Translations under genes and position numbers: made by a program
NCBI GenBank assembly: GCA_000092065.1
Contig: CP000591.1
Strand: one strand, 5' to 3'
Source of the DNA: Ostreococcus lucimarinus
Taxonomy: Eukaryota
Length of the DNA stretch: 64,000 nucleotides
The notes under the pieces: model-generated
The model's input: the letters and a program-made list of their open reading frames with translations, nothing else
What the model was told of the DNA's origin: nothing
The model's database searches: none
In this document: piece by piece, positions 2,697-31,607 of the stretch
Position numbering within the stretch: position 1 is the stretch's first letter
Layout of the letters: each line of letters begins with the position of its first letter

Positions 2697-4412
2697 ATGG
2701 ATTCGGTGACGTCGGTGTTTGGAAATTGGTTCTCGAGCGCGCGGGACGACGGGAGCGAGAGCGACGACGGGAGCGATGCGGCGGCGCGGGAGGCGGGATC
2801 AGAGAAGAGCGACGACGCGCGGGACGAGGACGGGGCGACGAGGGCGGACGAGGACGCGGAGGCGAGGGCGTTGCTGCCGCCGGCGACGACGCTGCATCCG
2901 TACGAGGACGTCAGACGATCGGTGGAGGGATTAGGGACGAGGAGACACGATCACGATTATCCGTCGGGGCTGACGAACGGGGGGAACACGTGCTTCGCGG
3001 CGTCGGCGTTGCAGTGCTTGCGACGGGCGACGCCGCTCACGGCGTGGTTCGACGGCGTGGAAAAGTTTCACGACGTCGCGCGGTGCGCGGAGACGAGGAA
3101 GTTTTGCGTGGTGTGCGAGTATTCGCAACATTTGGAACGCGCGATGGCGTCGAGGGACGCGCACAGCATAGGGAGGTTGACGAAGGACATTAGCAAGGTG
3201 GCGAGACAGTTTAGACGCGGGCGGCAGGAGGATTCGCACGAGTTCATCAACGCGCTGTTGGACGCGATGCACGTGATTTTTTTGAAGGATCTCGGAGGAG
3301 AGAAGAAGTACGATTTGCGCACGCGAGAGACGACGGTCATTTATCACGTCTTCGGTGGGTATACCCTGGGCACGGTGAAGTGCTTGGAGTGCGGGTACGT
3401 GAGCAAGAATTTTCAAAGCACGCTCGACATTCCGCTCGAGGTGACGGGAAAGATTGGCTCCGTCGAGGAGGCGCTTCGAGAAAACTTTTGCACGGAGGAA
3501 GTCCTCAGTGGTTCGAACAAGTACAAGTGCTCGAAGTGCAAGGCGTTGGTACGGGCGAAGAAGGGATCGAAAATCCACGTGTCGCCGAATATTTTAACCA
3601 TTCCTCTAAAACGGTACTCCACTGGACGGTTCAGCAAGATTACAAAGTACATCAAGTATCCGTCCAACTTTTCGCTGGCTGAGTTCATGAGCGATGATGC
3701 CCCGTATGAAGTCACGGCTCCAGAGTATGAGCTTTTCGGTGTATTGGTTCATCAAGACTTTTACGCCAGCGCGCACTCTGGACATTACGTGGCGTACGTA
3801 AAGTTGCGAGACGATTCCTGGGTGCTGTGCAACGATAGTCGCGTGTCGCCGTCTTCCGAAAAGGATGCGATGAAGCAAAAGGCGTACATATTGTTCTACG
3901 AGCGCGTGCACGCGAGAGGTGCACCACCATTGCGCCCGGCGGGATACTTGGACGAGCTCCGAGCGGCGCGCGACGCCGAACGTGCGGCGACGGCGATGAA
4001 GTGCGAAGACGCGGGGGAGGAACAGTTGACTTCTCGGTTCGATTCGATGAGTGTGAGCGCCACCGCGGTAGATACGGTGAGCGCTTCGTCGACGCGTCCT
4101 ACGAGATCTCCCGTCGTTGTCGCCGAGGAGGTCTCCGAGGAACCGTCAGTGCACATGGAAACGGTGAACGTCGAAAACGGTCGAGAGTTGCGCGTATCGG
4201 TCACTTTGCCTGGTTGTCGCAGCGCTCGCGATATCGAAGTCGAGCTCAGCATGGGGCAGCACGATGTGCCGTCATCGCTTATTATCAAGGCCCCAATGTT
4301 GTACGCGACGCCGGTGAAGGTTCACCTGCCGCCGAACGTGGAAGATCCCGTGAAGAGCTCGTTCGTGCGCAAGACGTCAGAGTATCGCGTGCGGTTTCCG
4401 GTTCGCGAGTGA
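2697..4412 (+). CDS. UBP: Ubiquitin carboxyl-terminal hydrolase (USP/UBP, peptidase C19)
   Basis: Track ORF 2640-4412 starts at TTG; the first ATG is at 2697 (MDSVTSVFGNWF). Cys box GLTNGGNTCFAASALQCL, His box SGHYVAYVKL..WVLCNDSRV, and an acidic low-complexity N-terminus. Confidence 0.9.
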   Translation: MDSVTSVFGNWFSSARDDGSESDDGSDAAAREAGSEKSDDARDEDGATRADEDAEARALLPPATTLHPYEDVRRSVEGLGTRRHDHDYPSGLTNGGNTCFAASALQCLRRATPLTAWFDGVEKFHDVARCAETRKFCVVCEYSQHLERAMASRDAHSIGRLTKDISKVARQFRRGRQEDSHEFINALLDAMHVIFLKDLGGEKKYDLRTRETTVIYHVFGGYTLGTVKCLECGYVSKNFQSTLDIPLEVTGKIGSVEEALRENFCTEEVLSGSNKYKCSKCKALVRAKKGSKIHVSPNILTIPLKRYSTGRFSKITKYIKYPSNFSLAEFMSDDAPYEVTAPEYELFGVLVHQDFYASAHSGHYVAYVKLRDDSWVLCNDSRVSPSSEKDAMKQKAYILFYERVHARGAPPLRPAGYLDELRAARDAERAATAMKCEDAGEEQLTSRFDSMSVSATAVDTVSASSTRPTRSPVVVAEEVSEEPSVHMETVNVENGRELRVSVTLPGCRSARDIEVELSMGQHDVPSSLIIKAPMLYATPVKVHLPPNVEDPVKSSFVRKTSEYRVRFPVRE

Positions 4413-8626: not shown

Positions 8627-8908
8627 GCCGACCGACCGACCGACCGACCGACCGACTGGTGTACAAACAGTGACACGCGAAATAACCATCGCCGCGACGC
8701 CACTGATGGGAATCTTCACGTATCGAAGAGCCGACCGACCGACTGGTGTACAAACAGTGACACGCGAAATACCCATCGCCGCGACGCCACTGATGGGAAT
8801 CTTCACGTATCGAAGAGCCGACCGACCGACTGGTGTACAAACAGTGACACGCGAAATAACCATCGCCGCGACGCCACTGATGGGAATCTTCACGTAATGA
8901 AGAGCCGC
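8627..8908. repeat. (CCGA)6 followed by an 87-bp tandem repeat x3 in the kinesin/AsnRS divergent intergenic region
   Basis: Units begin at 8654, 8741 and 8828 (gactggtgtacaaacagtgacacgcgaaataaccatcgccgcgacgccactgatgggaatcttcacgtatcgaagagccgaccgacc). The differences I noticed are aataacc/aataccc and, in the last unit, gtatcg/gtaatg. Confidence 0.9.
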
Positions 8909-8945
8909 CGCCGGCACACCCCGACGCCGCGCGCGCGCGAGCGCC

Positions 8946-18908: not shown

Positions 18909-19247
18909 GAGCGCGCCTCCGTACGCGCGTCCGCCGTCCGCGGCGCGCTCGACGCCCGGCGCGTCCCAGTCCGCCGTCGCCGTCGCGGGCGCGTCCCTCC
19001 GAACACCATCGTGGCCCGTCTGCGATCGCGCGAAACCGCGGCGCGCGTCAGTCGGCGAACGCGCTCGCGGTTCGCGCGATCGGCGCGTTTTCGCGCGTTT
19101 TCGCGCGCGTCCTCGCGCGCGCGCACCCCGAGCAGCAGCGTCTCGCGCTCGCTGCGGTCGCTCGACGACATCGCGCGACGCGCGCGACACAGAGTGACGC
19201 CGCGCGCGCGGCGTCGAGATCCGCTCGGCGCGGCGACGACGGCGTCG

Positions 19248-19491
19248 ATGACGTCCGCGTCGATGGTATCGACGCTCGCGGCGCGCGCGAGAGCGAACGT
19301 CGCGCTCGCGGTCGTCGCGATCGCGATCGCACTCGCGTTGTTCCCGCTGCTCGCGCCGCTCGCGCTGGGCGGTTTCGTCGTCGCGCGCGCGGTGCGCAGG
19401 GACGCGCGCGAGGAAGAGGACGTTTCGGTGAAGCCCGTCGCGGGGACGGGCGGGGACGTCGCGGTGCGAGAGAGGGCGCGGGTGGAGGTTG

Positions 19492-19551
<60 letters not shown>

Positions 19552-22133
19552 CGGTGGCGCTCACGGGCTCGGCGGCGATGCTGGCGAAGATGCGGAAGAG
19601 CAGCGCGTTGACTGGAGAAAAACGCGCGACCGCGGCGCAGGGTGCGAGCACGAGCGCGAAGGATGGTGTGGATGAGACGGCGACGAACGCGAAAGCGACC
19701 CGAACGTTTATATTGCACGGCGGCGAAGCGGCGTCGCAAATCGCGAAGGATTTGGCCGCGCAGGCGGAGAAAGAGCACGGAATTGCGTTGAATGTGATGA
19801 CAATGGATGATTTCAGAGACGTAGAGTTCGATAAAGAACCCTGCGCGGTGGTTTTCGTGGTCGAGACGGTAGAGAACGCGCAGCCGGCGGAAGCTGCGGG
19901 ATCTTGCGTGCGCTTCTTCAATCGGAAACGTAAGGAAGGGACGAATCAGGCTATGCTGGCGGGGAAGATGTCATACGCGGTTTTAGGACTCGGTGATACA
20001 AACTTGTTACTCGATCGCCAGACGACGACGGCGAAAGATTGTAACCAGGCTGCGCAGACGTTGGATTCGGCGCTCGCCGCTCTCGGCGGCGCTCGAATCG
20101 TCCCCCGCGGCGAGGCAAACGACGCCGTGGGTTTGGACGAAGACGTTGTACCGTGGGCCAAGTTGCTTTTCCCAAAATTGTCTGAAGTTCACAAAGGGAT
20201 TGAGGCGAAAAAAAACGCAAAGCTATGCTTCTTGTACGGCTCGCAGACCGGTAACGCGACGGAAATTTGCAAAAATCTCGCCGCCGAGGCGAGCGAGAAG
20301 GGGTACCCCGTGGAGGTGTGCGCGATGAATGAGGTCGAGCCAGAAGATGTCATCAAACCTGGCGCTGTGATTACGTTCGTCGTATCCAGCACCGGCGACG
20401 GTGACGCTCCGGATAACTGCGACACATTCTTCACTCGCCTCAAGCGCAAGGCAAAGAAGGAAAAAGGCGAGGGCGCCATCGGCGTCCAGTACGCCGTCCT
20501 AGGACTGGGTGATCAAAACTACAGCGCGTTCATGGCTGTGCCGCGTCAGTTCTCGCAAACGATGGAGAACTTGGGCGCGAAGTGTTTCGCTAAGCGCGGT
20601 GAATGCGACGACACACTTGGTTTGTACGAACAAGTTGACGCATGGACGAGCACGTTTTGGTCTCATCTCGAAGTCGCTCGAGGAAACTCACACAAGTTGC
20701 GCGAGGGTGAGACAATCGTGGAAGACGCTAATGCCGCCACTGAAGCTCCAAAAGGCGATTCGAAGCCACCGCAAGCGGCTGCGCCGGCGAAGAAAGTCGA
20801 AGGCGTGCCACCACTACCAATCTGCCGATCTGAAGTGCAGTGGCTGCCGAAAACGACAGAAGTGGTTGCTAATCGCGTCGCGCCCGGTCCAGATTCCGAA
20901 GGTGCATACACCGTCTCCTCGCCGTACATGGCGACTATTCACAAGCGTGAGGTACTCACAAACTTGAAATCCGATCGGCGAGTGTTGCACATGGAGTTTG
21001 ATCTCGGATCAAGTGGGATCTCTTACAAGCCGGGAGATTCCATTGGCATCGTACCGCAGAACGACGCCGAGCTGGTTCGAGCCATCGTCGATCGGCTGGG
21101 TCTCGATCAAGCCGCCATTTTCACGCTGAATTGGAAGAAAGGTGACACGAATGAACACGCGACTCATCCGTTGCCGCATATTCACACCCCGTGCACGGTA
21201 AAGAGTGTGTTCACGAATTATATCGACATCACGGGATGTCCGCGTAAGTCGCTCCTTCGCGTTCTCGCCGAACACTGCGGCAACGCGGAGGAAAAAGACG
21301 CCCTCTTGCACCTTTCATCGCGTGGTGGTCGAGCAGAATACGAAACACAGATTCGCGCGCAGTCACCGACGCTATTGACGCTCTTGAACAATTATCCGAG
21401 TTGTTGTCCTCCGTTAGCCGAGCTTTTAGATGCCCTCTCTCCGCTCGCGCCGAGACTGTATTCGATCACATGCGCGCCCGAGGTGGCACCAACAACGCCG
21501 TCGGTTGCCTTCAGTGTCGTGCGGTTCCAGGTACCCAGCGGTGAACATCGCCTCGGCGTCGCCACGAACTGGCTCGACGAGATATCGGTCGACGACAAGT
21601 GCGAGCACAAAGTCCCGGTGTACATCAAGCCAAGCTTGAAGTTCGGCCTGCCCGAAGACTCGAGCGCGCCGCTAGTGATGATTGGTCCGGGTACCGGCGT
21701 CGCACCATTCCGCGGTTTCCTCCAGTCCAGACGCGCTAAAGCACAAAAAGGCGGTCGATTATCTGAAGCTATGTTGTTCTTCGGCTGTCGCAAGGCAGAT
21801 GAGGACTTCCTGTACGAAGCCGACTGGAAGAGTTTCACCGCCGATGGCTCGCTGACAAAGCTCGTCTGCGCCTTTAGCCGCGAGACCGCAGAAAAGGTAT
21901 ACGTGCAGCACAAAATTGAAGAGCACGCCACCGAAGTCGCGCGCTTAATCTCTGAGGGCGCTTACGTCATGGTATGCGGCGACGGCGCGCACATGGCCAA
22001 GGATGTCCACGCCGCCCTCGTCCGCGTCGTCGCTCAAGCCGGCGTCTGCGGCGTCTCTGACGTCAAAGCCGCCGAGGCTCTCCTCGCCGACTTCACTAAA
22101 TCCGGTCGTTACGTCCGTGATATTTGGAGCTAA
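19248..22133 (+). CDS. Membrane-anchored diflavin reductase (NADPH-cytochrome P450 reductase / methionine synthase reductase family) with two tandem flavodoxin-like modules
   Basis: Track ORF 19011 starts at GTG; the first ATG is at 19248 (MTSASMVSTLAAR). TM VALAVVAIAIALALFPLLAPLALGGFVV, poly-Thr16, a degenerate flavodoxin-like module (TFILHGGEAASQIA...YAVLGLGDTN), a canonical FMN module (LCFLYGSQTGNATE...YAVLGLGDQNY), FAD/NADPH domains (RLYSITC, GPGTGVAPFRGF, VMVCGDGAHMAKDV), and the C-terminus GRYVRDIWS. Confidence 0.88.
19503..19550 (+). repeat. (ACG)16 microsatellite encoding poly-Thr inside the reductase CDS
   Basis: An uninterrupted acg run, in frame with the CDS, translated as T16. 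Confidence 0.95.
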
Positions 22134-22356
22134 CGCACGCGCGTTCGTATTGTTTAGATTTTAATTTCTCATTTCATTTCATTTCATTCCACTCCACTCT
22201 CGTTCCGTTTCACCAAACTCCTGCGGGCGAGTTGGGTGTTACGCGTACACGCGCGCCCCTCAGACCCGCGCGCGCTTCGCCGCGGGCTAAAATGCGCCGT
22301 CGTGATCGAGGAAACGACCCTCCGATGGTGTCGTCGACGTTCGTCGTCGTCCTCGT
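20619..22356 (+). repeat. Segmental duplication, copy 1 (1,738 bp)
   Basis: Matches 27064-28801 at a constant offset of +6445 with no indel that I could find. It covers the last 1,515 bp of the reductase CDS, the 158-bp spacer and the first 22 codons of the GH1 gene. Confidence 0.95.
22292..22356 (+). pseudogene. 5' ghost of the GH1 beta-glucosidase gene (first 22 codons only)
   Basis: MRRRDRGNDPPMVSSTFVVVLV is identical to 28737-28801. After 22356 the sequence diverges (ASKFRAC, then stop). Confidence 0.85.
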
Positions 22357-22381
22357 AGCAAGCAAGTTTAGAGCTTGCTAA

Positions 22382-22498
22382 CTTTTGACTGTAGAGGAAC
22401 ACGCCAAGTTCGTCGATGGACTTACGAAGCTGGGCAAAGGCAACTGGCGTGGGATCATTCAACACTTCGTTCAGTCTCGAACGCCGACGCAGGTCTAA
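22382..22498 (+). pseudogene. Isolated fragment of a SHAQKYF-class (DIV/RAD-like) MYB/SANT domain
   Basis: My translation in a frame the track does not report: [38 protein letters not shown]-stop. This corresponds to the WTxEEHxxFLxGLxKxGKGxWRxIxxxFVxxRTPTQVASHAQKYF pattern truncated before SHAQKYF. There is no ATG, and a stop lies immediately upstream (22379-81). Confidence 0.6.
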
Positions 22499-22522
22499 TC
22501 ACACGCGATAGATCGGTCGAAC

Positions 22523-23386
22523 TTAAGTCTGGGGCATTTCAATCTCTCGGTCCAAAGCTTCCGCGCCCAACGCCGAATATCTACATCGTGAGCGTCGTGC
22601 ACGTGTTGAAACTGCCCACACTGACACCATGGTAGTCGCCAACAAGCCCAGCGTTACGTAGACAAGTGTCAAACAACTGAAGTAACTGTTTTGAGGCGAA
22701 CGCTCTGAGGCGAAACATAGAGCGCCGTGCAAATCTTCATCAGGTTCGAGCGTGATGTTACGTTGAAGAACGAATACGTATCGCTTGAAGGGCATTGATG
22801 CGCCACCTGAAGCTGTGATATGAAATTCCACCGTCTCAATCGAAGCAGATTTCTCAGGTGCGCACCAAATTAAGTTGTGGACGGTGGCTTTGCGCGTCGT
22901 GTACATGCGTCGACCAGAGCAGGCGGTGGCCGGCCTGTTCACGTTCCCATTCAAAAGCACGCCTTGATCGTGAAAGGATCCCGCAGAAGCGGTGATCAGC
23001 ATCATCGAATTCGGGTCTTCGTGCGATGCCGCGAGACCCAAGCGGCAGCCATCGCAATATTCTCGTTTACCGGGAGGGAACGTCCACGCAGCGGGGATCT
23101 GCCTCGTGGGTTCATTTTCGTCGTACTGCGCATCCTCAACATCAGTGTGGTTTGCCCAACTCAGCAGCACACTCGTGTTTGTGGCATCTATCGGTGCTCC
23201 GTGACCAGCAGCACGACGTGTGGGGTGTACGCGAGCCATCCCACCTTCGCAACGCGCGTCGAGGCGCAGTTCGGTCGGATACGACTCCACCAAAACCAGT
23301 CGCCAATCGAAGATTGCCACGGCGACGGCGGCGCATAGGCGCGCCGGATGCCGCAGACACATGTCGCCGCGTCGACATCGGTTCAT
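22523..23386 (-). CDS. Type I membrane protein with a possible Reeler/DOMON-like beta-sandwich ectodomain
   Basis: ATG at 23386, signal-like ARLCAAVAVAIF, and C-terminal TM CLTLVYVTLGLLATTMVSVWAV. The ectodomain pattern C-x2-M-x-V-H...HG...ITASAGSF...C...VHNLIWCAPEKS..VEFHITASGG resembles my memory of the Reeler-domain pattern. The family call is low confidence. Confidence 0.6.
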   Translation of the reverse strand: MNRCRRGDMCLRHPARLCAAVAVAIFDWRLVLVESYPTELRLDARCEGGMARVHPTRRAAGHGAPIDATNTSVLLSWANHTDVEDAQYDENEPTRQIPAAWTFPPGKREYCDGCRLGLAASHEDPNSMMLITASAGSFHDQGVLLNGNVNRPATACSGRRMYTTRKATVHNLIWCAPEKSASIETVEFHITASGGASMPFKRYVFVLQRNITLEPDEDLHGALCFASERSPQNSYFSCLTLVYVTLGLLATTMVSVWAVSTRARRSRCRYSALGAEALDREIEMPQT

Positions 23387-23455
23387 AGGGTTGTAGCGCC
23401 CGTCCTGGTCCTAGCCCGTCATGTAGCGTTGACGCGCGTGTTCTGCCCCACCCAA

Positions 23456-23483
23456 GTCGTCTGTCGTCTGTCGTCTGTCGTCT
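23456..23483. repeat. (GTCGTCT)4 heptanucleotide repeat in the divergent promoter of the insert genes
   Basis: gtcgtct x4, then the degenerate unit gttgtcg. Confidence 0.9.
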
Positions 23484-24042
23484 GTTGTCGGGGGGTGTCC
23501 GTTCGCGACGGACAACATACCAGCAAAGCTATGACTCAAAGGCTTTGTTCGGTCACGCGCGCGCACGCTCGCACGACTGAGCGCCGTCGACTCCTGATTC
23601 CACACGTTCAGCGTCGTCGGAATCATACGGGAAACCCGGCAGAGAAGCGCGGGGAAGTACGCATCGCGTTCGCGCGACACTGTCCGACGTAAAACGCGTA
23701 TAATGAGACATTTTCCAATCAAGTTTTGTAAGAAGGTTGAAATATACTTAGTAAATAATTATGCGAGGCCCAATAGTTCTTTTAAATTATCTAATACGAC
23801 GTGCGACCGACCAAATCCGACTAATGCACGCGGCAAGTATGGAGGAGATATTTACATGGAGGATTATCCACTAGATATTTTTTGGATATTTACTCCGCAT
23901 CGAACGAGTTACGACTCAACAATAGAGGGACCGTTGCGCGTGGCCGGCACGTGCCGGCCACGCGCCGCCACGTGCGCGAGGTCCCTACGCCCGTCTCTCC
24001 GCAAGCATCACACGACGACGCGAGGAATTCTACGCGAAGAAG

Positions 24043-25713
24043 ATGCAAATCGAACGAAGGAAACGAAATGCGCGAGCGCTCTGCGCACTTGTTGTTTCTG
24101 CGACGCTTGCGAACACCGCGAGCGCGCAATTAACATACATCGCAGGATACGAGCCACGCTCCAACGTCGTCCAACATTCCCAAGTCGACTTGGACATAAG
24201 GGATATCATTAGTTCTTTCCCGAAGTGGAAGGGTGGAGACAGCATTTACAATGGCGGACTTCTGAACGACTGCACCACAGTGGCAGGCGCGTGCAACTGG
24301 AATGGGACCAGTAGTCTATACCCAACATTGTGGGACGGCACTTGTACGCACACCTGCCCTGCTGCTGACTCGGCAAATCCGGGCCAAAAGTGCACTTTAA
24401 GCGCGGCGGATGCATGTTTGTCCACTTACGGTATTTATAAGTATGGTAAGGGATCGTTCAAGGGGAACAACAAGGATGACGCGGCGTCGATGCGGACGCT
24501 TCGCGGGTTTGCAACGAAACTTGGTGATAAGGGTGCCTCAGCGCGTGTTGCCGCGAAAAACAACCCGTTTATCAACAAAATGAATAAATACTGGGCGAAA
24601 CAGGGGCTGAATGAATTGACTTGGGGTCAAGATATCATCGAAGCTGCTTTCAAAGGTACTTGTGTCAAGAACGGTAACTCGTGTGTAAAATCAGGGGGAG
24701 TAAATCTTCTCGATTTTGGCACGGTCGGAAACGACTTCAGGGTGGAAGTGATAAAGAAAGGTATTATTTACTTGAACATCTTTCCTTACGTCATTTGGGA
24801 ATTTCAAGACGCTATCAACGACTGCCATGGTGGTGACTTGGGCGCGAACGATGAAATTCCCGGAGGAGGTTCAGTACACGCTTGGGATGAAGCCGTAGCC
24901 TTTTACACTGGTTCGCTCGAGGGCATCTTAAAAGGCGGTAACAATGGCCTCGCCTCATGCGATGACGGTAATTGTGAGTTGCAATTTCAACTGTCAGATT
25001 ATCGCTGCACGAACTTCGGTACCTGCACCGCCGATGCTGATGGTGACCCGTGGAGTGGATACTCAAAAAATAATGAAGAGATCTTCAAACTCTTTCAACA
25101 AGGTGAAGGTGAAATTACTGAAGCCGCTGCAAGCTCCAATACTGCGGCGACGAAATGTGACTTGCCGGATCGCACCCACGAAAAGGCTGTTACGAAAATG
25201 CTTGTTCCTTTCGTGCAAGGATGCATGAGGTACTTGTGGAAGACAAAAGATTCGCAGAAAGCTAAGGAAGCAGGCGAGCTCTTTGCGTTTGCATCCGCTG
25301 CACTTCCTTTTATCGATGCGGTAGACCCTGTCGCCGCTACTAAGTTGTTCACACGTGCGTGGAAACTAGATTTCACTACTTACACGTATGAAGAAACTAA
25401 GCAGGGCATCGAAGGCACCCTTTCGAGACTCGGTGCTGGTGAGGGCATTGGTACAATATCTTGCGCTGACATTGGCGACCTCGTTGACAGCAGTGATCAA
25501 CTGCTCGCTGCTGGCTGCACGGATCCCTCATCTCCCTCATCTTCCAATAATGACACCACTCTCGGGCTGGGTATTGGGATTCCACTGGGTGCCATCGCAA
25601 TCACCGCGTTGGTATTTGTCGTGCTTTTGTGGCGAAAGAGCTCAGCAAACAGCAAGCGAGTCGAAGAGTTAACCATGCAGCTGAGAGGTCCTGGTAAGGA
25701 CTTCTATCCGTGA
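24043..25713 (+). CDS. Secreted, C-terminally anchored Cys-rich protein; candidate FEA1/ISIP2a (phytotransferrin)-family iron-uptake protein
   Basis: ATG at 24043, signal peptide ALCALVVSATLANTASAQ, a Cys-rich ectodomain of about 480 aa containing GGSVHAWDEAVAFYTGSLEG, a Ser/Pro linker, TM LGIGIPLGAIAITALVFVVLLW and a short basic tail. The architecture matches phytotransferrin-type proteins. The family call is from memory and needs an HMM search. Confidence 0.6.
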   Translation: MQIERRKRNARALCALVVSATLANTASAQLTYIAGYEPRSNVVQHSQVDLDIRDIISSFPKWKGGDSIYNGGLLNDCTTVAGACNWNGTSSLYPTLWDGTCTHTCPAADSANPGQKCTLSAADACLSTYGIYKYGKGSFKGNNKDDAASMRTLRGFATKLGDKGASARVAAKNNPFINKMNKYWAKQGLNELTWGQDIIEAAFKGTCVKNGNSCVKSGGVNLLDFGTVGNDFRVEVIKKGIIYLNIFPYVIWEFQDAINDCHGGDLGANDEIPGGGSVHAWDEAVAFYTGSLEGILKGGNNGLASCDDGNCELQFQLSDYRCTNFGTCTADADGDPWSGYSKNNEEIFKLFQQGEGEITEAAASSNTAATKCDLPDRTHEKAVTKMLVPFVQGCMRYLWKTKDSQKAKEAGELFAFASAALPFIDAVDPVAATKLFTRAWKLDFTTYTYEETKQGIEGTLSRLGAGEGIGTISCADIGDLVDSSDQLLAAGCTDPSSPSSSNNDTTLGLGIGIPLGAIAITALVFVVLLWRKSSANSKRVEELTMQLRGPGKDFYP

Positions 25714-26896
25714 GAGGTCCTGGTAAGGACTTGAGTCTTCTCTATGAGGTGCTGCTCCGATAGGCTACTACATTGAGCCCAGCACATTGAGCCCAAGAGC
25801 GAAGAGCTCGTTTAATTTAATGCACATACTACTTGAAATACCGTCTCACCATTTGCCGCCGTTTGCCGCCGCCGCGTTGATCGAGCATGACTTGGACGTG
25901 TTACCGAACGAAACGTAACGAGCCAGGTGGCGTTCGTAGGGTATTGAAATGCAGAAATTTGTATCCGTGAGTCGCAGCTAACTTTGAGCGCGACACGACG
26001 CGAGGTGCGCGCGAAGGCAAAAAGTTACATATTTTACCGTTTTTTTTCGAAATCACGTGTAGTGCATTATGGTACCACCTAAAACATGGTGGCTAATACA
26101 CACAGCACCACACTATAGATAAACACGACATATAATATGTACAGAACTACATTGAGCGGCTTGCCAAGCGTGGCCCACAGAAAGTTCTGGTTCGAGTCGC
26201 GCGTTTGTTGCGCGCAGCAGCTTTCCTTGCACTGCGAGCTCGAGTTTTCGCACGCTGGCTCAGTACTCTCTGTTCGTAAGGCGCGCGTGAAGGCTCTAAT
26301 CGAACGGAACTCCAGACGCGCGGCGTGTGGCATCGTTCGTCGCGCGCCGTAGGGCCACACACGTGCACTCCTCGCAGCAGAGACTACGCGTCTCCGCTCA
26401 CGTTCAGAGAACGAAGGGCGTGCGACGCAGTCTCGTCGGCACTGGAGCATTCTGAGGGCGCGCGCGAGGGTGACACTTGCTTACGCTGATGTTCTCGGCG
26501 GAGGTCCCGCGTACAGAGCGTCGCCGCGACGGCAAGTGACATGCAGCCACTCGAAGTCGTGCGACGAGCGGCGACGACGCGGTTGTAACGCACACGCGCC
26601 GGCCCCGGGCACGAGACGAAACCGAAAAGACGGTTCGTAGAAAAACGCGCGTGTTTGGCACGCGCCCGGTGAAACGTGAGCGAAAAACCGAAAAGTATAC
26701 CTATAGGGTGTAGCGCTTCGATGTATGATGCAAATGGAATTACGGTACTTTATACGAATGCCCCTAACGACGAGACGATACCGATTGGGTAAAGTTCTGG
26801 CGACCCGCCGCTACGCCCAACACAAATTGGTCCCACAGATGCATTCCCCAAAGTGAGGGACTGGAATCAAAGGCGGGCAAGAAAACCGCCGCATGG

Positions 26897-27065
26897 CTCG
26901 CACCCCGTGCACTGCCAGCGTCGCCCGAGGCCACGCTCCGCGTGAAAGTCGGCGCATCGCGTGCGAGCGCTGCCGCATAACTCACACCCCGTGTGCCGCC
27001 ATTATCGTCGCCTGAGGCCACGCCCCGCGAGAAAGTCGGCGGATCGCGTGCGAGTGCCGTCGCGG
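26897..27065. repeat. Imperfect 84-bp tandem repeat x2 abutting the right breakpoint of the insert
   Basis: 26897-26980 and 26981-27065 are about 80% similar by eye (ctcRcaccccgtg...gtcgccYgaggccacgcYccgcgWgaaagtcggcgSatcgcgtgcgag...). Confidence 0.75.
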
Positions 27066-28578
27066 TTTGTACGAACAAGTTGACGCATGGACGAGCACGT
27101 TTTGGTCTCATCTCGAAGTCGCTCGAGGAAACTCACACAAGTTGCGCGAGGGTGAGACAATTGTGGAAGACGCTAATGCCGCCACTGAAGCTCCAAAAGG
27201 CGATTCGAAGCCACCGCAAGCGGCTGCGCCGGCGAAGAAAGTCGAAGGCGTGCCACCACTACCAATCTGCCGATCTGAAGTGCAGTGGCTGCCGAAAACG
27301 ACAGAAGTGGTTGCTAATCGCGTCGCGCCCGGTCCAGATTCCGAAGGTGCATACACCGTCTCCTCGCCGTACATGGCGACTATTCACAAGCGTGAGGTAC
27401 TCACAAACTTGAAATCCGATCGGCGAGTGTTGCACATGGAGTTTGATCTCGGATCAAGTGGGATCTCTTACAAGCCGGGAGATTCCATTGGCATCGTACC
27501 GCAGAACGACGCCGAGCTGGTTCGAGCCATCGTCGATCGGCTGGGTCTCGATCAAGCCGCCATTTTCACGCTGAATTGGAAGAAAGGTGACACGAATGAA
27601 CACGCGACTCATCCGTTGCCGCATATTCACACCCCGTGCACGGTAAAGAGTGTGTTCACGAATTATATCGACATCACGGGATGTCCGCGTAAGTCGCTCC
27701 TTCGCGTTCTCGCCGAACACTGCGGCAACGCGGAGGAAAAAGACGCCCTCTTGCACCTTTCATCGCGTGGTGGTCGAGCAGAATACGAAACACAGATTCG
27801 CGCGCAGTCACCGACGCTATTGACGCTCTTGAACAATTATCCGAGTTGTTGTCCTCCGTTAGCCGAGCTTTTAGATGCCCTCTCTCCGCTCGCGCCGAGA
27901 CTGTATTCGATCACATGCGCGCCCGAGGTGGCACCAACAACGCCGTCGGTTGCCTTCAGTGTCGTGCGGTTCCAGGTACCCAGCGGTGAACATCGCCTCG
28001 GCGTCGCCACGAACTGGCTCGACGAGATATCGGTCGACGACAAGTGCGAGCACAAAGTCCCGGTGTACATCAAGCCAAGCTTGAAGTTCGGCCTGCCCGA
28101 AGACTCGAGCGCGCCGCTAGTGATGATTGGTCCGGGTACCGGCGTCGCACCATGCCGCGGTTTCCTCCAGTCCAGACGCGCTAAAGCACAAAAAGGCGGT
28201 CGATTATCTGAAGCTATGTTGTTCTTCGGCTGTCGCAAGGCAGATGAGGACTTCCTGTACGAAGCCGACTGGAAGAGTTTCACCGCCGATGGCTCGCTGA
28301 CAAAGCTCGTCTGCGCCTTTAGCCGCGAGACCGCAGAAAAGGTATACGTGCAGCACAAAATTGAAGAGCACGCCACCGAAGTCGCGCGCTTAATCTCTGA
28401 GGGCGCTTACGTCATGGTATGCGGCGACGGCGCGCACATGGCCAAGGATGTCCACGCCGCCCTCGTCCGCGTCGTCGCTCAAGCCGGCGTCTGCGGCGTC
28501 TCTGACGTCAAAGCCGCCGAGGCTCTCCTCGCCGACTTCACTAAATCCGGTCGTTACGTCCGTGATATTTGGAGCTAA
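27064..28578 (+). pseudogene. 3' ghost of the diflavin reductase gene (FAD/NADPH half only, no flavodoxin module, no in-frame ATG at its 5' end)
   Basis: Track ORF 27067-28578 starts at TTG. An in-frame stop lies at 27013-15 and the first ATG codon is only at PYMATIHK. It carries GVAPCRGF where the full gene has the conserved GVAPFRGF. Confidence 0.7.
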
Positions 28579-28801
28579 CGCACGCGCGTTCGTATTGTTT
28601 AGATTTTAATTTCTCATTTCATTTCATTTCATTCCACTCCACTCTCGTTCCGTTTCACCAAACTCCTGCGGGCGAGTTGGGTGTTACGCGTACACGCGCG
28701 CCCCTCAGACCCGCGCGCGCTTCGCCGCGGGCTAAAATGCGCCGTCGTGATCGAGGAAACGACCCTCCGATGGTGTCGTCGACGTTCGTCGTCGTCCTCG
28801 T
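27064..28801 (+). repeat. Segmental duplication, copy 2 (1,738 bp)
   Basis: See copy 1. The differences I found are T27162 versus C20717 (synonymous Ile) and G28154 versus T21709 (Phe to Cys). Confidence 0.95.
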
Positions 28802-30515
28802 CGGCGTCGTCGCCCGCGCGAGCGCGCAGACCCACGCGCACCAACACCATCGAGGCGAAACGAGCCACGGCGACGGAAACTTTGTCACCTTCCCACCGTC
28901 GTTCGCGTTCGGCGTCGGAACGTCGGCGTGGCAGATCGAAGGAAACGGTGGTGATCGCCCGCGATCGGTGTGGGACGCGTTCGTGAGCGAACTAGGAGAG
29001 GAGAAGAGAGTGGAGGCGGAGCGCGGGATCGGCTTTCACGAGCGATACGCGGCGGATGCGCAAATGATGGCGGATGCGGGAGTGAAACATTTCAAAATGT
29101 CCCTGAGCTGGCCGAGGTTGATGCGCGCCGACGGGAGCGCGATCGATGAAGGGTTCGAGTATTATCAGAACGTTTTCGGGGCGCTACGCGAGCGAGGCGT
29201 GGAACCGCACGTGACGCTGTTTCACTGGGACACGCCGATGTGGTGCTGCGCCAACGAAACGATCGCGAGCGGGCGTGGGAGCGTGTGCGAAGGAGCTTGG
29301 GTGAAGGATGAAATCTTGAAAGATTTTGAGAAGTACGCGGATGCGGTGTTTAGTAGACTCGGGAAGGGGATAAAATATTGGACCACAATTAGTGAGCCAA
29401 AAACCGTCGCAGAGATGGGCTACGGTGCGGGCCTTCACGCGCCTGGGCGTCGGAGCGTGGAAGAACAACTTAAAGTGGGGCATAATATGTTGCGTGCACA
29501 CGCTTTGGCGGTGGCGCTCTATAGGGAGAAATATTCCCAGTTTGGAGGGAAACTTTCAATCAATTTGAATAGCGCTTGGGTCGAGCCGGCGTCGGATTCG
29601 CCGGACGACGTGCGTGCGGCGGCAAACGCGATGGATGAAGAGCTTGGATGGTTTGCCGATCCTATTTATAAAGGTGACTATCCGGCGAGCATGCGGGCGA
29701 GATTGGGGAGCTTTCTTCCGGAGTTCACCGAGGAGGAGCGCGTGCTCGTGAAAGGGAGCGTCGATTACTTTGCGCTCAATCACTACACGTCCTACTTCGC
29801 CAAGCATGTGACCGACGCGCAAGCTTCGTCGCAGCTTGGTTTGAGCGGCAGACCTCAGCCGTGGGAGATCACACTAGAGTCAGAAAAGAGCAAGAAACCA
29901 ATCGGCAAGGAGGCGCAAAGCGACTGGTTGCACATCGTGCCGTGGGGATTAGAAAAGGTTTTGCTGCACATCAAGGACAGATACGACGATCCAGCGATCA
30001 TGATCTCGGAGAATGGCGTCGATATCGCCGAGAGGGGCGATATCGCGGAAACTCTGGACGACACAACGAGAGTCAAGTTTATCGATGCCTATCTCGGAGC
30101 CGCTCGCGAGGCGATGCGTAAAGGCGCAAACGTTGTGGGGTACTTTTATTGGTCGATGTTCGACAACGTCGAGTGGGTGGATGGGCGATCGAAACGATTT
30201 GGTTTGGTTTATGTCGATTACGACGGCAAGTACGGCGAAAAGATGAAGCGCTATCCAAAGAAATCTCTCGAGCACTTCTCCTCCTACATGCGAGGAGAGC
30301 ACGCCGAAGAACCAACCCTCGGTGCCGCGCGCGTGCGACACTCGCTCGAAGACTCTTTCGTTCAAGTCGATCCGAGGCGTCAGGGCGAAATCTTCGCATT
30401 GCAAGGCATGGCGTTGACCATCGCCTGCGTCTACGCCGCGGCAGCGGCGTTCGCCGGCGGCGTCAAAATCGTCGAGCAAGACGTCGAGCAAGACGAACGC
30501 TCGTCCCTCGTCTGA
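28737..30515 (+). CDS. BGLU: GH1 beta-glucosidase with signal peptide and C-terminal TM anchor
   Basis: Track ORF 28569 starts at TTG inside the reductase 3' end; the first ATG is at 28737 (MRRRDRGNDPPMVSSTFVVVLVGVVARASA). FPPSFAFGVGTSAWQIEGN, LFHWDTPMW, acid/base TISEPK, nucleophile ISENG, YFYWSMFDNVEW, and TM LTIACVYAAAAAFAGGV. Confidence 0.9.
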   Translation: MRRRDRGNDPPMVSSTFVVVLVGVVARASAQTHAHQHHRGETSHGDGNFVTFPPSFAFGVGTSAWQIEGNGGDRPRSVWDAFVSELGEEKRVEAERGIGFHERYAADAQMMADAGVKHFKMSLSWPRLMRADGSAIDEGFEYYQNVFGALRERGVEPHVTLFHWDTPMWCCANETIASGRGSVCEGAWVKDEILKDFEKYADAVFSRLGKGIKYWTTISEPKTVAEMGYGAGLHAPGRRSVEEQLKVGHNMLRAHALAVALYREKYSQFGGKLSINLNSAWVEPASDSPDDVRAAANAMDEELGWFADPIYKGDYPASMRARLGSFLPEFTEEERVLVKGSVDYFALNHYTSYFAKHVTDAQASSQLGLSGRPQPWEITLESEKSKKPIGKEAQSDWLHIVPWGLEKVLLHIKDRYDDPAIMISENGVDIAERGDIAETLDDTTRVKFIDAYLGAAREAMRKGANVVGYFYWSMFDNVEWVDGRSKRFGLVYVDYDGKYGEKMKRYPKKSLEHFSSYMRGEHAEEPTLGAARVRHSLEDSFVQVDPRRQGEIFALQGMALTIACVYAAAAAFAGGVKIVEQDVEQDERSSLV

Positions 30516-30951
30516 CGCCATCGCCCACGATCGACACATAGCAAACAAATTCGCTTAAACGAGTAAACAGTTGAGACTTAGCGCGCGTTGAAACAATCAC
30601 ATGCACGGTATTGAACCATGGCGTGTACACGAGTCTCCGAAGACTCGCGTGCTTCGGGCGCTCCGCGCCATCGCGTCCACGTCGACGCGATGTGACCTTC
30701 GCCACGATCTCGCCCTCCTCGAGCGAGGTTTCGCGAACGCGCTTGCTCGCGACGAGCTCCGGCGCCGCGCAAAGCTTCGCGAGACGACTCGCAGCCGCGC
30801 GCGCACATATCGCTCGGTCGCCCGCGTCTTGACCGGGCGCGAGCGCGATTTGCGCGAGCCGCGCGAAATTTCGGTCCCCCGCGACGCGCGCGTTCTCCGC
30901 CACGCGTCGGTGGCGTCGCAGAAACTTTTTCACGTGCGTCTTCTTCGTCAT
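30463..30951 (-). CDS. Doubtful hypothetical ORF (MTKKTHVKKFLRRHRR...)
   Basis: This is the only ATG-initiated stretch with GC3-rich coding-like codons in the 1.1-kb gap between the GH1 and DUF829 genes. Its last 50 or so codons lose the codon bias and overlap the GH1 3' end by 53 bp, so the end, and even the reality of the gene, are uncertain. Confidence 0.25.
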   Translation of the reverse strand: MTKKTHVKKFLRRHRRVAENARVAGDRNFARLAQIALAPGQDAGDRAICARAAASRLAKLCAAPELVASKRVRETSLEEGEIVAKVTSRRRGRDGAERPKHASLRRLVYTPWFNTVHVIVSTRAKSQLFTRLSEFVCYVSIVGDGVRRGTSVRLARRLARRF

Positions 30952-31445
30952 GCCTCCATGTGACGTTTCGTCTCGGCGTCTCGACCTTGTGACGCGGCCT
31001 CGGACGCGCGCGAGGGCACCTCGGCACTCTGCGACGCGCGCGCGACTCGGCGCGGTCGTCGCGGACGCGTCGCGAAAGAAGAAAAAAAGTCGAGCATCGA
31101 ACCGCGCGTCGTTCGAGCGCCGCGCCGCGGCGCGCGCGACGCGCGGACGCGCGAGATGGGGCGCGTTGAAGCGGCGTTTCTCGGCGCCGGATCCCGCCTC
31201 GGGCGGCGCCTCGGGCGTCGCGCGCGCGACTAGCAAGACACGAAAACGAAGGAAAGAAAGCGCGTACGAATTCTTTTGAATCGATGTGCGCGGCGATGGA
31301 CGCGCGCGCGCGCGTTCGCGCGCCGACTCGCGCGATCGTCGTCTCCGAGACGGGCCGCGCAGACTGACCCTCGCGCAGAGGCCGACGCCAGAAGACACGC
31401 GAAACAAGGCGGCGATAGCGTCCAAACTATCGCTCGCCTGCGGCA

Positions 31446-31478
31446 GGTTAACCCAGGGTTGACCCAAGGTTGACCCAG
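31446..31478 (+). promoter_or_regulatory. 11-bp motif GGTTRACCCAR x3 in tandem, 130 bp upstream of the DUF829 gene ATG
   Basis: ggttaacccag ggttgacccaa ggttgacccag. GGTTGACCC also occurs at 40701-40709, in the loop of a hairpin. Confidence 0.5.
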
Positions 31479-31607
31479 CCGCAGTACTACACCCTCGCGG
31501 CGCGAGGACGCGAAGGAGGGACAGCTCGCTCGCGCGATCTCGTCGAACGACCTAGAGCCCTCGAAAGTAGCGATTGTAGTACGTCGCGTCACTCGCAGCC
31601 TCGCGCG

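Follow-up and report, generated by a model that had tools for sequence, protein, structure and literature searches.

The 64,000-nucleotide stretch of Ostreococcus lucimarinus DNA analysed here (contig CP000591.1 of assembly GCA_000092065.1; hereafter the window) contains a divergent pair of genes for predicted surface proteins: a 556-amino-acid (aa) member of the Fea1/ISIP2a family, which is phytotransferrin-like and most likely binds iron, and a 287-aa protein with a Reeler-like ectodomain. The preferred explanation, regarded as probable rather than secure, is that a conserved surface-gene pair, composed of the iron-binding Fea1 protein and an accessory Reeler-like partner, was relocated by a one-off repair or replication event, and that the core of its Fea1 gene is hypervariable. 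The insertion is recent, and wild populations are still polymorphic for it. In an abundant ocean alga, both the position and the sequence of the main iron-capture gene thus differ from strain to strain, which is relevant to the adaptation of ecotypes to iron supply. The Fea1 family and segmental duplication are themselves known kinds.

A divergent pair of predicted membrane proteins

The two divergent open reading frames (ORFs) are confirmed, and both carry the existing annotation "predicted protein"; an exact look-up gives the accessions listed below. A 593,542-bp record of O. lucimarinus CCE9901 contains a "predicted protein" with 100% identity to the 556-aa ORF. The pair and its spacer are located as follows:

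22523..23386, minus strand: type I membrane protein, 287 aa (XP_001420500.1), with a predicted Reeler-like beta-sandwich ectodomain
23387..24042, no strand: divergent intergenic spacer, 656 bp
24043..25713, plus strand: Fea1/ISIP2a-family (phytotransferrin-like) type I membrane protein, 556 aa (XP_001420329.1), recognized by PF07692, homologues, hydropathy and an AlphaFold2 (AF2) model

An earlier note on this DNA had described a divergent single-copy pair across a 656-bp spacer, with a signal peptide and a single C-terminal transmembrane helix in both products. The ORF coordinates and a repeat comparison of the window, within which the copy number of each gene is one, bear out the former; hydropathy and sequence inspection, on which the signal-peptide and transmembrane calls are based, bear out the latter. 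According to hydropathy, both proteins start with a hydrophobic signal-like segment and end with one hydrophobic helix followed by basic residues.

The 556-aa protein is an established member of the Fea1/ISIP2a family: it matches PF07692 (Fea1) in Pfam with an E-value of 7.6e-11 and 42.1 bits (gathering cut-off 25), and nearly all of its 207 homologues carry the same domain. Its predicted layout comprises a signal peptide (aa ~1-28), a Cys-rich N-terminal region, the Fea1 domain, a Ser/Pro stalk (TDPSSPSSSNNDTT) ahead of the transmembrane helix (aa ~505-530), and a 26-aa tail; HAWDEAVAFYTGSLEG is found at aa 279-294. Both the domain score and this architecture of signal peptide, ectodomain, stalk, helix and short tail uphold the phytotransferrin-family assignment made earlier. 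The AF2 model is mostly helical (predicted local distance difference test score, pLDDT, 78.5; predicted TM-score, pTM, 0.79). Its comparison with the Protein Data Bank (PDB) by Foldseek gives nothing significant (best E-value 1.2; imelysin at 1.8), and PDB sequence searches with both proteins of the pair or with their profiles give nothing relevant.

Binding of Fe(III) by ISIP2a is carbonate-dependent. The PF07692 domain is present in ISIP2a, the diatom phytotransferrin (PMC7966952), as well as in Ot-Fea1 from Ostreococcus tauri (ostta18g01980), a protein with a signal peptide, a C-terminal transmembrane helix and iron binding (PMC4855317). Ot-Fea1 is the O. tauri gene most strongly and consistently induced by Fe limitation, and the only iron-uptake gene of that species that is up in all low-iron conditions, no iron regulon being known (PMC4855317). 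The 556-aa protein shares with Ot-Fea1 the genus, the Pfam domain and the arrangement of signal peptide, ectodomain and C-terminal transmembrane helix; it differs in having one Fea1 domain, whereas the domain of Ot-Fea1 is duplicated, and in the hypervariability of its ectodomain among strains. Its homologues include metagenome proteins of ~950 aa (48-50% identity), a size that fits the duplicated-domain architecture of Ot-Fea1. Iron binding and induction by Fe limitation are data for Ot-Fea1 and are extended to the 556-aa protein by homology; judged from the relationship of the protein to Ot-Fea1 and to diatom ISIP2a, its most likely role is Fe(III) binding at the cell surface.

A Reeler-like ectodomain in the 287-aa protein

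The 287-aa protein consists of an ectodomain (aa ~36-215), one transmembrane helix (aa ~236-260) and a short basic/acidic tail. A word-indexed search finds only nine close relatives (82-95% identity), and phmmer against 1.84 billion representatives finds 20. Common to the family is an ectodomain of ~180 aa (aa ~35-213), in the alignment of which Cys46, His54, Pro55, His62, Cys156, Arg160 and the motif Trp174-X-Ala-Pro177 are invariant; the mature N-terminus is kept as A|[H/Y/F/W]-P across the family. A metal site would be predicted from His54 and His62 together with the N-terminal H/Y-P. Some of the relatives are short and have a single transmembrane helix, while others, of 430-630 aa, continue into a multi-pass domain. 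PF03188 (cytochrome b561) is matched by six of the longer relatives (30-41 bits, cut-off 23), always C-terminal to the common ectodomain. In these proteins of eukaryotic plankton, the ectodomain thus makes up the extracellular head of a cytochrome b561 protein. Proteins of that class, which are of the ferric-reductase type, carry electrons across the membrane and are driven by ascorbate.

The earlier note had also associated this protein with Reeler domains, a claim that stands in part. Pfam speaks against it: at E<=1 the 287-aa protein has no match, PF02014 (Reeler) and PF03188 included, Reeler is not matched by any of 17 homologues, and DOMON is not matched by any of the 18 members of the family. 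The predicted fold and the b561 domain context speak for it. The AF2 model is a beta-sandwich with a core pLDDT of ~88, and a Foldseek search against the PDB places the reeler domain of F-spondin at ranks 1-3 (for 2zot_A, E 1.9e-4, probability 1.00 and a target-normalised TM-score of 0.52; for 2zou_B, a TM-score of 0.57). At the sequence level, when hhalign compares the family profile with the reeler domain of F-spondin, whose sequence agrees with PDB 2zot, a weak match appears in the Trp-X-Ala-Pro strand region alone (22 columns, P 0.025, probability 1.9%). A search of a 5.8-billion-protein set with a profile of the ectodomain alignment recovers close Ostreococcus proteins only, with no annotated Reeler proteins among them. 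The description of the ectodomain as Reeler-like is backed at the level of the predicted fold and the domain context, not by Pfam membership; the ectodomain represents a new family linking phytotransferrin genes to b561-type reductases.

Comparison with known Reeler proteins reveals both likeness and difference. The 287-aa ectodomain is only 12-16% identical to the F-spondin reeler (Reelin-N) domain (PDB ID: 2zot, 2zou, and 3coo), which occurs in animal extracellular matrix/heparin-binding proteins, and the algal family has invariant residues of its own, namely two His, a Cys pair and the conserved mature N-terminus. In SDR2, FRRS1 and Drosophila CG8399 (CYBDOM proteins, combining Reeler, DOMON and cytochrome b561), the role of the Reeler domain itself is unknown (PMC10691727). 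The remote homologues of the 287-aa protein resemble these proteins in carrying a Reeler-type sandwich N-terminal to b561; unlike in SDR2, FRRS1 and CG8399, however, DOMON occurs in no homologue, b561 is absent from the 287-aa protein, and PF02014 is not matched.

The cytosolic C-terminus of single-helix and b561-fused family members alike conserves a motif of the form hydrophobic-X-Glu-[Leu/Met], and Val-Glu-Glu-Leu in the Fea1 tail resembles it. The motif common to the two tails may be a shared sorting signal.

Possible partnership of the two genes

All Ostreococcus loci recovered (L001, L002, L040-L047, L049, L053, and L055) have the pair side by side in divergent orientation. A contig from a distant relative (L037; 35-46% aa identity, 50% GC) carries the Reeler-like gene with a Fea1 gene on each side, in the same orientation. 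Physical clustering of pathway genes in a eukaryotic alga is also seen for the phytotransferrin pathway of diatoms (PMC7972479); there, the clustered proteins are unrelated to those described here and the phytotransferrin gene lies outside the cluster, whereas in Ostreococcus it is the Fea1 gene that has the paired neighbor.

The earlier note had proposed a module for Fe(III) capture and reduction. With a single predicted transmembrane helix and neither a b561 nor any other redox domain, the 287-aa protein cannot itself be a reductase, and the module does not hold in that form. The protein is proposed instead to be an accessory or docking subunit, the b561 part having been lost or never present. 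In that role, it would offer the iron held by Fea1 to a b561 protein encoded elsewhere, or would pass it on in some other way. Fe-induced b561 proteins of O. tauri include ostta04g02840 and ostta16g00370. Iron release and reduction after binding by phytotransferrin are unresolved in phytoplankton, and the full protein set of the pathway is unknown (PMC7972479); the proximity-proteomics study in a diatom leaves open both the proteins downstream of phytotransferrin and the identity of the reductase (PMC7972479). Since it is linked to Fea1 and has relatives fused to cytochrome b561, the Reeler-like gene is a concrete candidate for the missing step, and its candidate role is testable because Ostreococcus is transformable.

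Several points weigh against such a partnership. Three other distant homologues, on short contigs, have no Fea1 neighbor, and adjacency in one genus and one distant contig could reflect inherited synteny rather than functional coupling. The surface ferric reductase activity of O. tauri is reportedly little or none (PMC4855317, PMC7676907), which weakens reduction-dependent models. In addition, the ratio of nonsynonymous to synonymous divergence (dN/dS) of the 287-aa gene is 0.5-0.7, indicating only weak constraint.

It is conceivable, if doubtful, that the genes are mere neighbors: Fea1 would work alone in iron capture, the 287-aa product would be a surface or adhesion protein of the Ig-like type with no relation to it, and their adjacency would be synteny inherited within the compact genomes of Mamiellales. 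This alternative has to accommodate the homologues in which the same ectodomain is fused to cytochrome b561, a module of the ferric-reductase type, the adjacency kept in L037 at 35-46% identity despite a changed gene orientation, and the fact that the pair moved together as one unit. A bolder proposal makes the Reeler-like protein a dedicated and previously unrecognized partner of phytotransferrin in picoeukaryotes, a split-off extracellular head of an ancestral b561 ferric reductase linking Fea1-captured Fe(III) to reductive release, and places it in a relocatable, strain-variable adaptive cassette with the surface-exposed Fea1 ectodomain under diversifying selection (e.g., by iron regime or by viruses for which Fea1 would be the receptor). 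This proposal appears unlikely as a whole.

The relocated unit and its alleles

The gene pair belongs to a larger unit, U, that lies between two copies of a long direct repeat, R:

22357..27063, no strand: relocated unit U, 4707 bp, comprising both genes and 1350 bp of conserved 3' sequence without recognizable gene
20619..22356, plus strand: first copy of R, made up of the 3'-terminal 1515 bp of an intact gene for a 1040-aa diflavin reductase (19011-22133) and 223 bp downstream
27064..28801, plus strand: second copy of R, a reductase fragment that arose by duplication and is truncated at its 5' end (ORF 27067-28578), with the FAD/NADPH-binding half only
25714..27063, no strand: right arm of U, including 87-bp tandem repeats at 26919-27063

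The repeat is 1738 bp long (20619-22356 and 27064-28801), its copies differ by two mismatches, and it brackets U in an arrangement denoted A-R-U-R-B, where A and B are the flanks. The reductase gene upstream (Flavodoxin, FAD_binding_1, and NAD_binding_1 domains in Pfam) is intact, and the truncated copy downstream of the insert (27067-28578) keeps an open frame of 503 codons. A Phe-to-Cys change in the GTGVAPF motif of the truncated copy (G at 28154) is confined to the reference, wild contigs carrying the Phe codon. Both reference-only differences between the R copies are absent from the wild contigs, where the copies are identical, and the duplication must therefore be very young.

Contigs from other sources show the locus in filled and empty states. 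The filled alleles (L005-L007, L009, L049, and L053) include a 608-kb contig of the Joint Genome Institute (JGI; L049) that is colinear with positions 12517-33386 of the window across A-R-U-R-B at 99.4% identity, and junctions A-R|U or U|R-B are crossed by metagenome contigs L005, L006, L007, L009 and L053. A Logan unitig (L003; run SRR23274481) equals 22327-27093 at 100%, i.e., U extended at either end by 30 nt of R; this is the length that k=31 predicts if R is the only neighbor of U. Empty alleles of the form A-R-B, with one R and no insert, are represented by a 25-kb contig that is 99.4% identical (L004) and by one at ~95% (L008).

In a sister lineage, ~5% diverged, U occupies another locus, as shown by ten contigs (L001, L002, and L040-L047) and in at least eight ocean samples. 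There, U is situated between the AP-3 delta gene and a gene for a 447-aa protein, near LPA2-like, Cornichon, kinase and P21-Arc genes. In every contig with such a donor-type locus, the limits of homology to the window are precisely 22367 and 27064. Cluster look-ups for the donor-type locus return no members named O. lucimarinus. Synonymous divergence (dS) of the 287-aa gene between the window and the sister lineage is ~0.05, matching the ~5% background divergence at the reductase locus, and the right arm from 26100 onward is at least 99.5% identical to the donor-type loci, whose neighboring gene has a dS of 0.05. The empty, filled and alternative-locus contigs together confirm that the segment moved recently, as the earlier note had suspected, and show that it varies between strains.

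A 33-nt inverted repeat, ACCGGAGGCGCTAAACCCTAGCAAAAATCGAGT, with the telo-box-like core AAACCCTA, brackets the cassette at the donor-type loci (positions 3667-3699 and 8517-8549 of L040; also in L002, L044, and L047), and one of its arms meets the left breakpoint of U with its inner edge. The right junction of U shares a single G (~1 nt of microhomology), while the left junction contains 10 nt, AGCAAGCAAG, that resemble the donor sequence AGCAAAAATCGAG in degraded form. Pfam searches over all ORFs of U and of the donor-type locus detect only the two cargo genes and no transposase, integrase or recombinase. The ends of U display neither terminal inverted repeats nor a short target duplication, the flanking duplication being 1738 bp long.

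Within the right arm, ~1 kb of apparently non-coding sequence (26100-27063) is conserved without a match in Rfam or Pfam and ends in the 87-bp tandem repeats. The Pfam search covered the entire right arm (25714-27063) and gave no match; the Rfam search covered 22000-29000 and gave a sub-threshold chance match only. Elsewhere in the window, at 8644-8913, there is a direct repeat of ~185 bp with an offset of 87 bp and 96.8% identity.

Probable course of the relocation

In CCE9901 and some of its wild relatives, U came to lie just downstream of the diflavin reductase gene only recently, through an event that duplicated 1738 bp of the target and left the reductase gene intact along with a truncated second copy. 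Microhomology-mediated duplication with templated insertion, by fork stalling and template switching (FoSTeS) or microhomology-mediated break-induced replication (MMBIR), has been described in other eukaryotes. The lack of a recombinase, of terminal inverted repeats and of a short target duplication, together with ~1 nt of microhomology, points to template switching or repair and not to transposition; a one-off replication template switch of the FoSTeS/MMBIR type, or break repair, is the most likely process. It was perhaps triggered at the 33-nt inverted repeat of the donor-type locus. The long direct repeats would make the insert removable by homologous recombination, which may contribute to the presence/absence polymorphism. 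The Ostreococcus locus resembles FoSTeS/MMBIR products in that the target is duplicated in tandem and the junction holds sequence apparently copied from another place, and also in the ~1 nt of microhomology and the short imperfect filler. It differs in that the donor copy is apparently absent from the same genome.

Two observations count against a template switch. Such a switch should leave a donor copy behind, while L003 points to a single copy flanked only by R; and a 4804-bp Tara contig (L050) reads from the right arm of U through R into the left arm of U, an order that the linear reference does not contain and that fits a circular or tandem arrangement of R and U.

The earlier note had regarded the segment as a candidate mobile cassette. 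A relocated and polymorphic segment is indeed present; a mobile element is not indicated, given the lack of element machinery, of terminal inverted repeats and of multiple copies, U being single in the window and flanked only by R in L003. A transposon is rejected, as neither U nor the donor-type locus encodes a transposase or integrase and no terminal inverted repeats are found.

A true mobile element or episome is improbable: a 6445-bp circle composed of U and R would integrate and excise at R in the Campbell manner, with repeated gain, loss and amplification. The identical 1.7-kb direct repeats, the empty allele in a population of 99.4% identity, and L050, which joins the right arm of U, R and the left arm of U as a circle or tandem array would, are all consistent with it. 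Homologous recombination, including the removal of foreign DNA, is reportedly efficient in Ostreococcus (Lozano et al. 2014). On the other hand, short-read assemblers can generate the path seen in L050 by walking through the 1.7-kb repeat, and the origin of such a circle is left unexplained, as U is not beside R at the donor-type locus. Moreover, the junctions show ~1 nt of microhomology rather than homology, and U contains no replication or recombination genes.

Acquisition from a prasinovirus or another horizontal source is very improbable. The low GC content of U (53.5%, compared with ~62% in the flanks) and its presence/absence polymorphism might suggest foreign DNA; however, the pair is stable in a normal chromosomal context in the sister lineage, where the GC content of U is lower as well. 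The dS of 0.05 for the 287-aa gene matches the background of ~5%, as would be expected if the pair was inherited vertically and later moved within the genome. Scans of 2.9 million viral contigs in IMG/VR, which reach close relatives only, confirmed no relative of either protein and lend no support to the foreign or prasinovirus origin considered in the earlier note.

Misassembly typically arises at near-identical repeats such as these of 1.7 kb, but an artefact of the reference assembly is effectively refuted by the independent 608-kb contig (L049), colinear across A-R-U-R-B, by the several metagenome contigs that cross A-R|U or U|R-B, and by the two ends of L003, each of which reaches exactly 30 nt into R, the overhang that k=31 predicts.

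A hypervariable Fea1 core between conserved arms

The Fea1 ectodomain and the proximal promoter form a hypervariable core between conserved arms, independently of the relocation. Identity between the window and the donor-type loci is 93-100% in the arm with the 287-aa gene and 99-100% at 26100-27063, and falls to 50-70% at 23700-25500, which comprises the proximal Fea1 promoter, the signal peptide and the whole ectodomain. The Fea1 proteins of the window and the donor-type loci are 51% identical, with saturated dS (3.7), and yet their transmembrane helix and tail are identical. The donor-type allele in L040 also passes the PF07692 threshold (30.7 bits).

Variation is apparent even at a much finer scale. 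Among strains with 99-100% identical flanks and the same young insertion (L048 and L053), Fea1 differs by 9% of its amino acids; the differences cluster in aa 31-200, with a dN/dS of ~1.1-1.4. A difference of 9% between near-identical flanks implies that point mutation since the insertion is not sufficient. The likely origin of the pattern is recombination or conversion between alleles, together with selection on the exposed ectodomain that is either diversifying or relaxed.

The Fea1 stop codon falls inside a 29-bp tandem duplication at 25683-25732 (GAGAGGTCCTGGTAAGGACTT twice). The duplication alters the final residues of the protein (...GPGKDFYP, as opposed to ...GPGKV in the L040 allele), and GGTAAG within it resembles a 5' splice site.

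The spacer and a candidate regulatory palindrome

The earlier note had described the spacer as AT-rich, with a (GTCGTCT)4 repeat, and as shared between two co-regulated genes. The repeat is present at 23456-23483 and nowhere else in the window. The AT-rich character does not apply to the spacer overall (54% GC, against 60% for the window), but to a core of ~200 bp at 23687-23900, which has 26-34% GC. As for sharing, the left part of the spacer on the side of the 287-aa gene (to ~23653, with the (GTCGTCT)4 repeat) is conserved with other lineages, whereas the right part (23654-24042) goes with the particular Fea1 allele and is swapped together with the ectodomain between lineages. This division, half conserved and half exchanged, suggests separate proximal promoters for the two genes and disagrees with a common regulatory spacer.

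The Fea1 side of the spacer contains a further element:

23936..23965, no strand: perfect 30-bp palindrome GCGCGTGGCCGGCACGTGCCGGCCACGCGC, ~80-105 bp upstream of the Fea1 ATG (0 expected by chance)

Its center, CACGTGCC, matches CACGTG[TC]C on both strands, and a second CACGTGC is located at 23969. The motif, listed as an iron-responsive element in diatoms (PMC11947080), is present at only three loci in the 64-kb window. The palindrome constitutes a candidate iron-responsive element, and is a regulatory lead rather than evidence of regulation.

Further structural variation

Two contigs present unusual arrangements of U. In L055, A-R-U is joined to 196 nt of the right flank of the donor-type locus (positions 1-196 of the contig), which would correspond either to a chimeric assembly path running through the shared arm or to a real hybrid arrangement. 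L043, a metagenome-assembled sequence (GCA_035092485.1), contains the donor-type locus as a large inverted duplication, probably an assembly palindrome.

Elsewhere in the window, 166 bp at 18967-19132, overlapping the first ~120 nt of the reductase ORF (19011-22133), are missing in L004 as a length polymorphism. A second presence/absence polymorphism, near the insert, affects a 964-bp intergenic segment at 30617-31580, between a Glyco_hydro_1 gene and a DUF829-like gene. The segment is absent in L004 and L008, at least partly present in L007, and full in L049.

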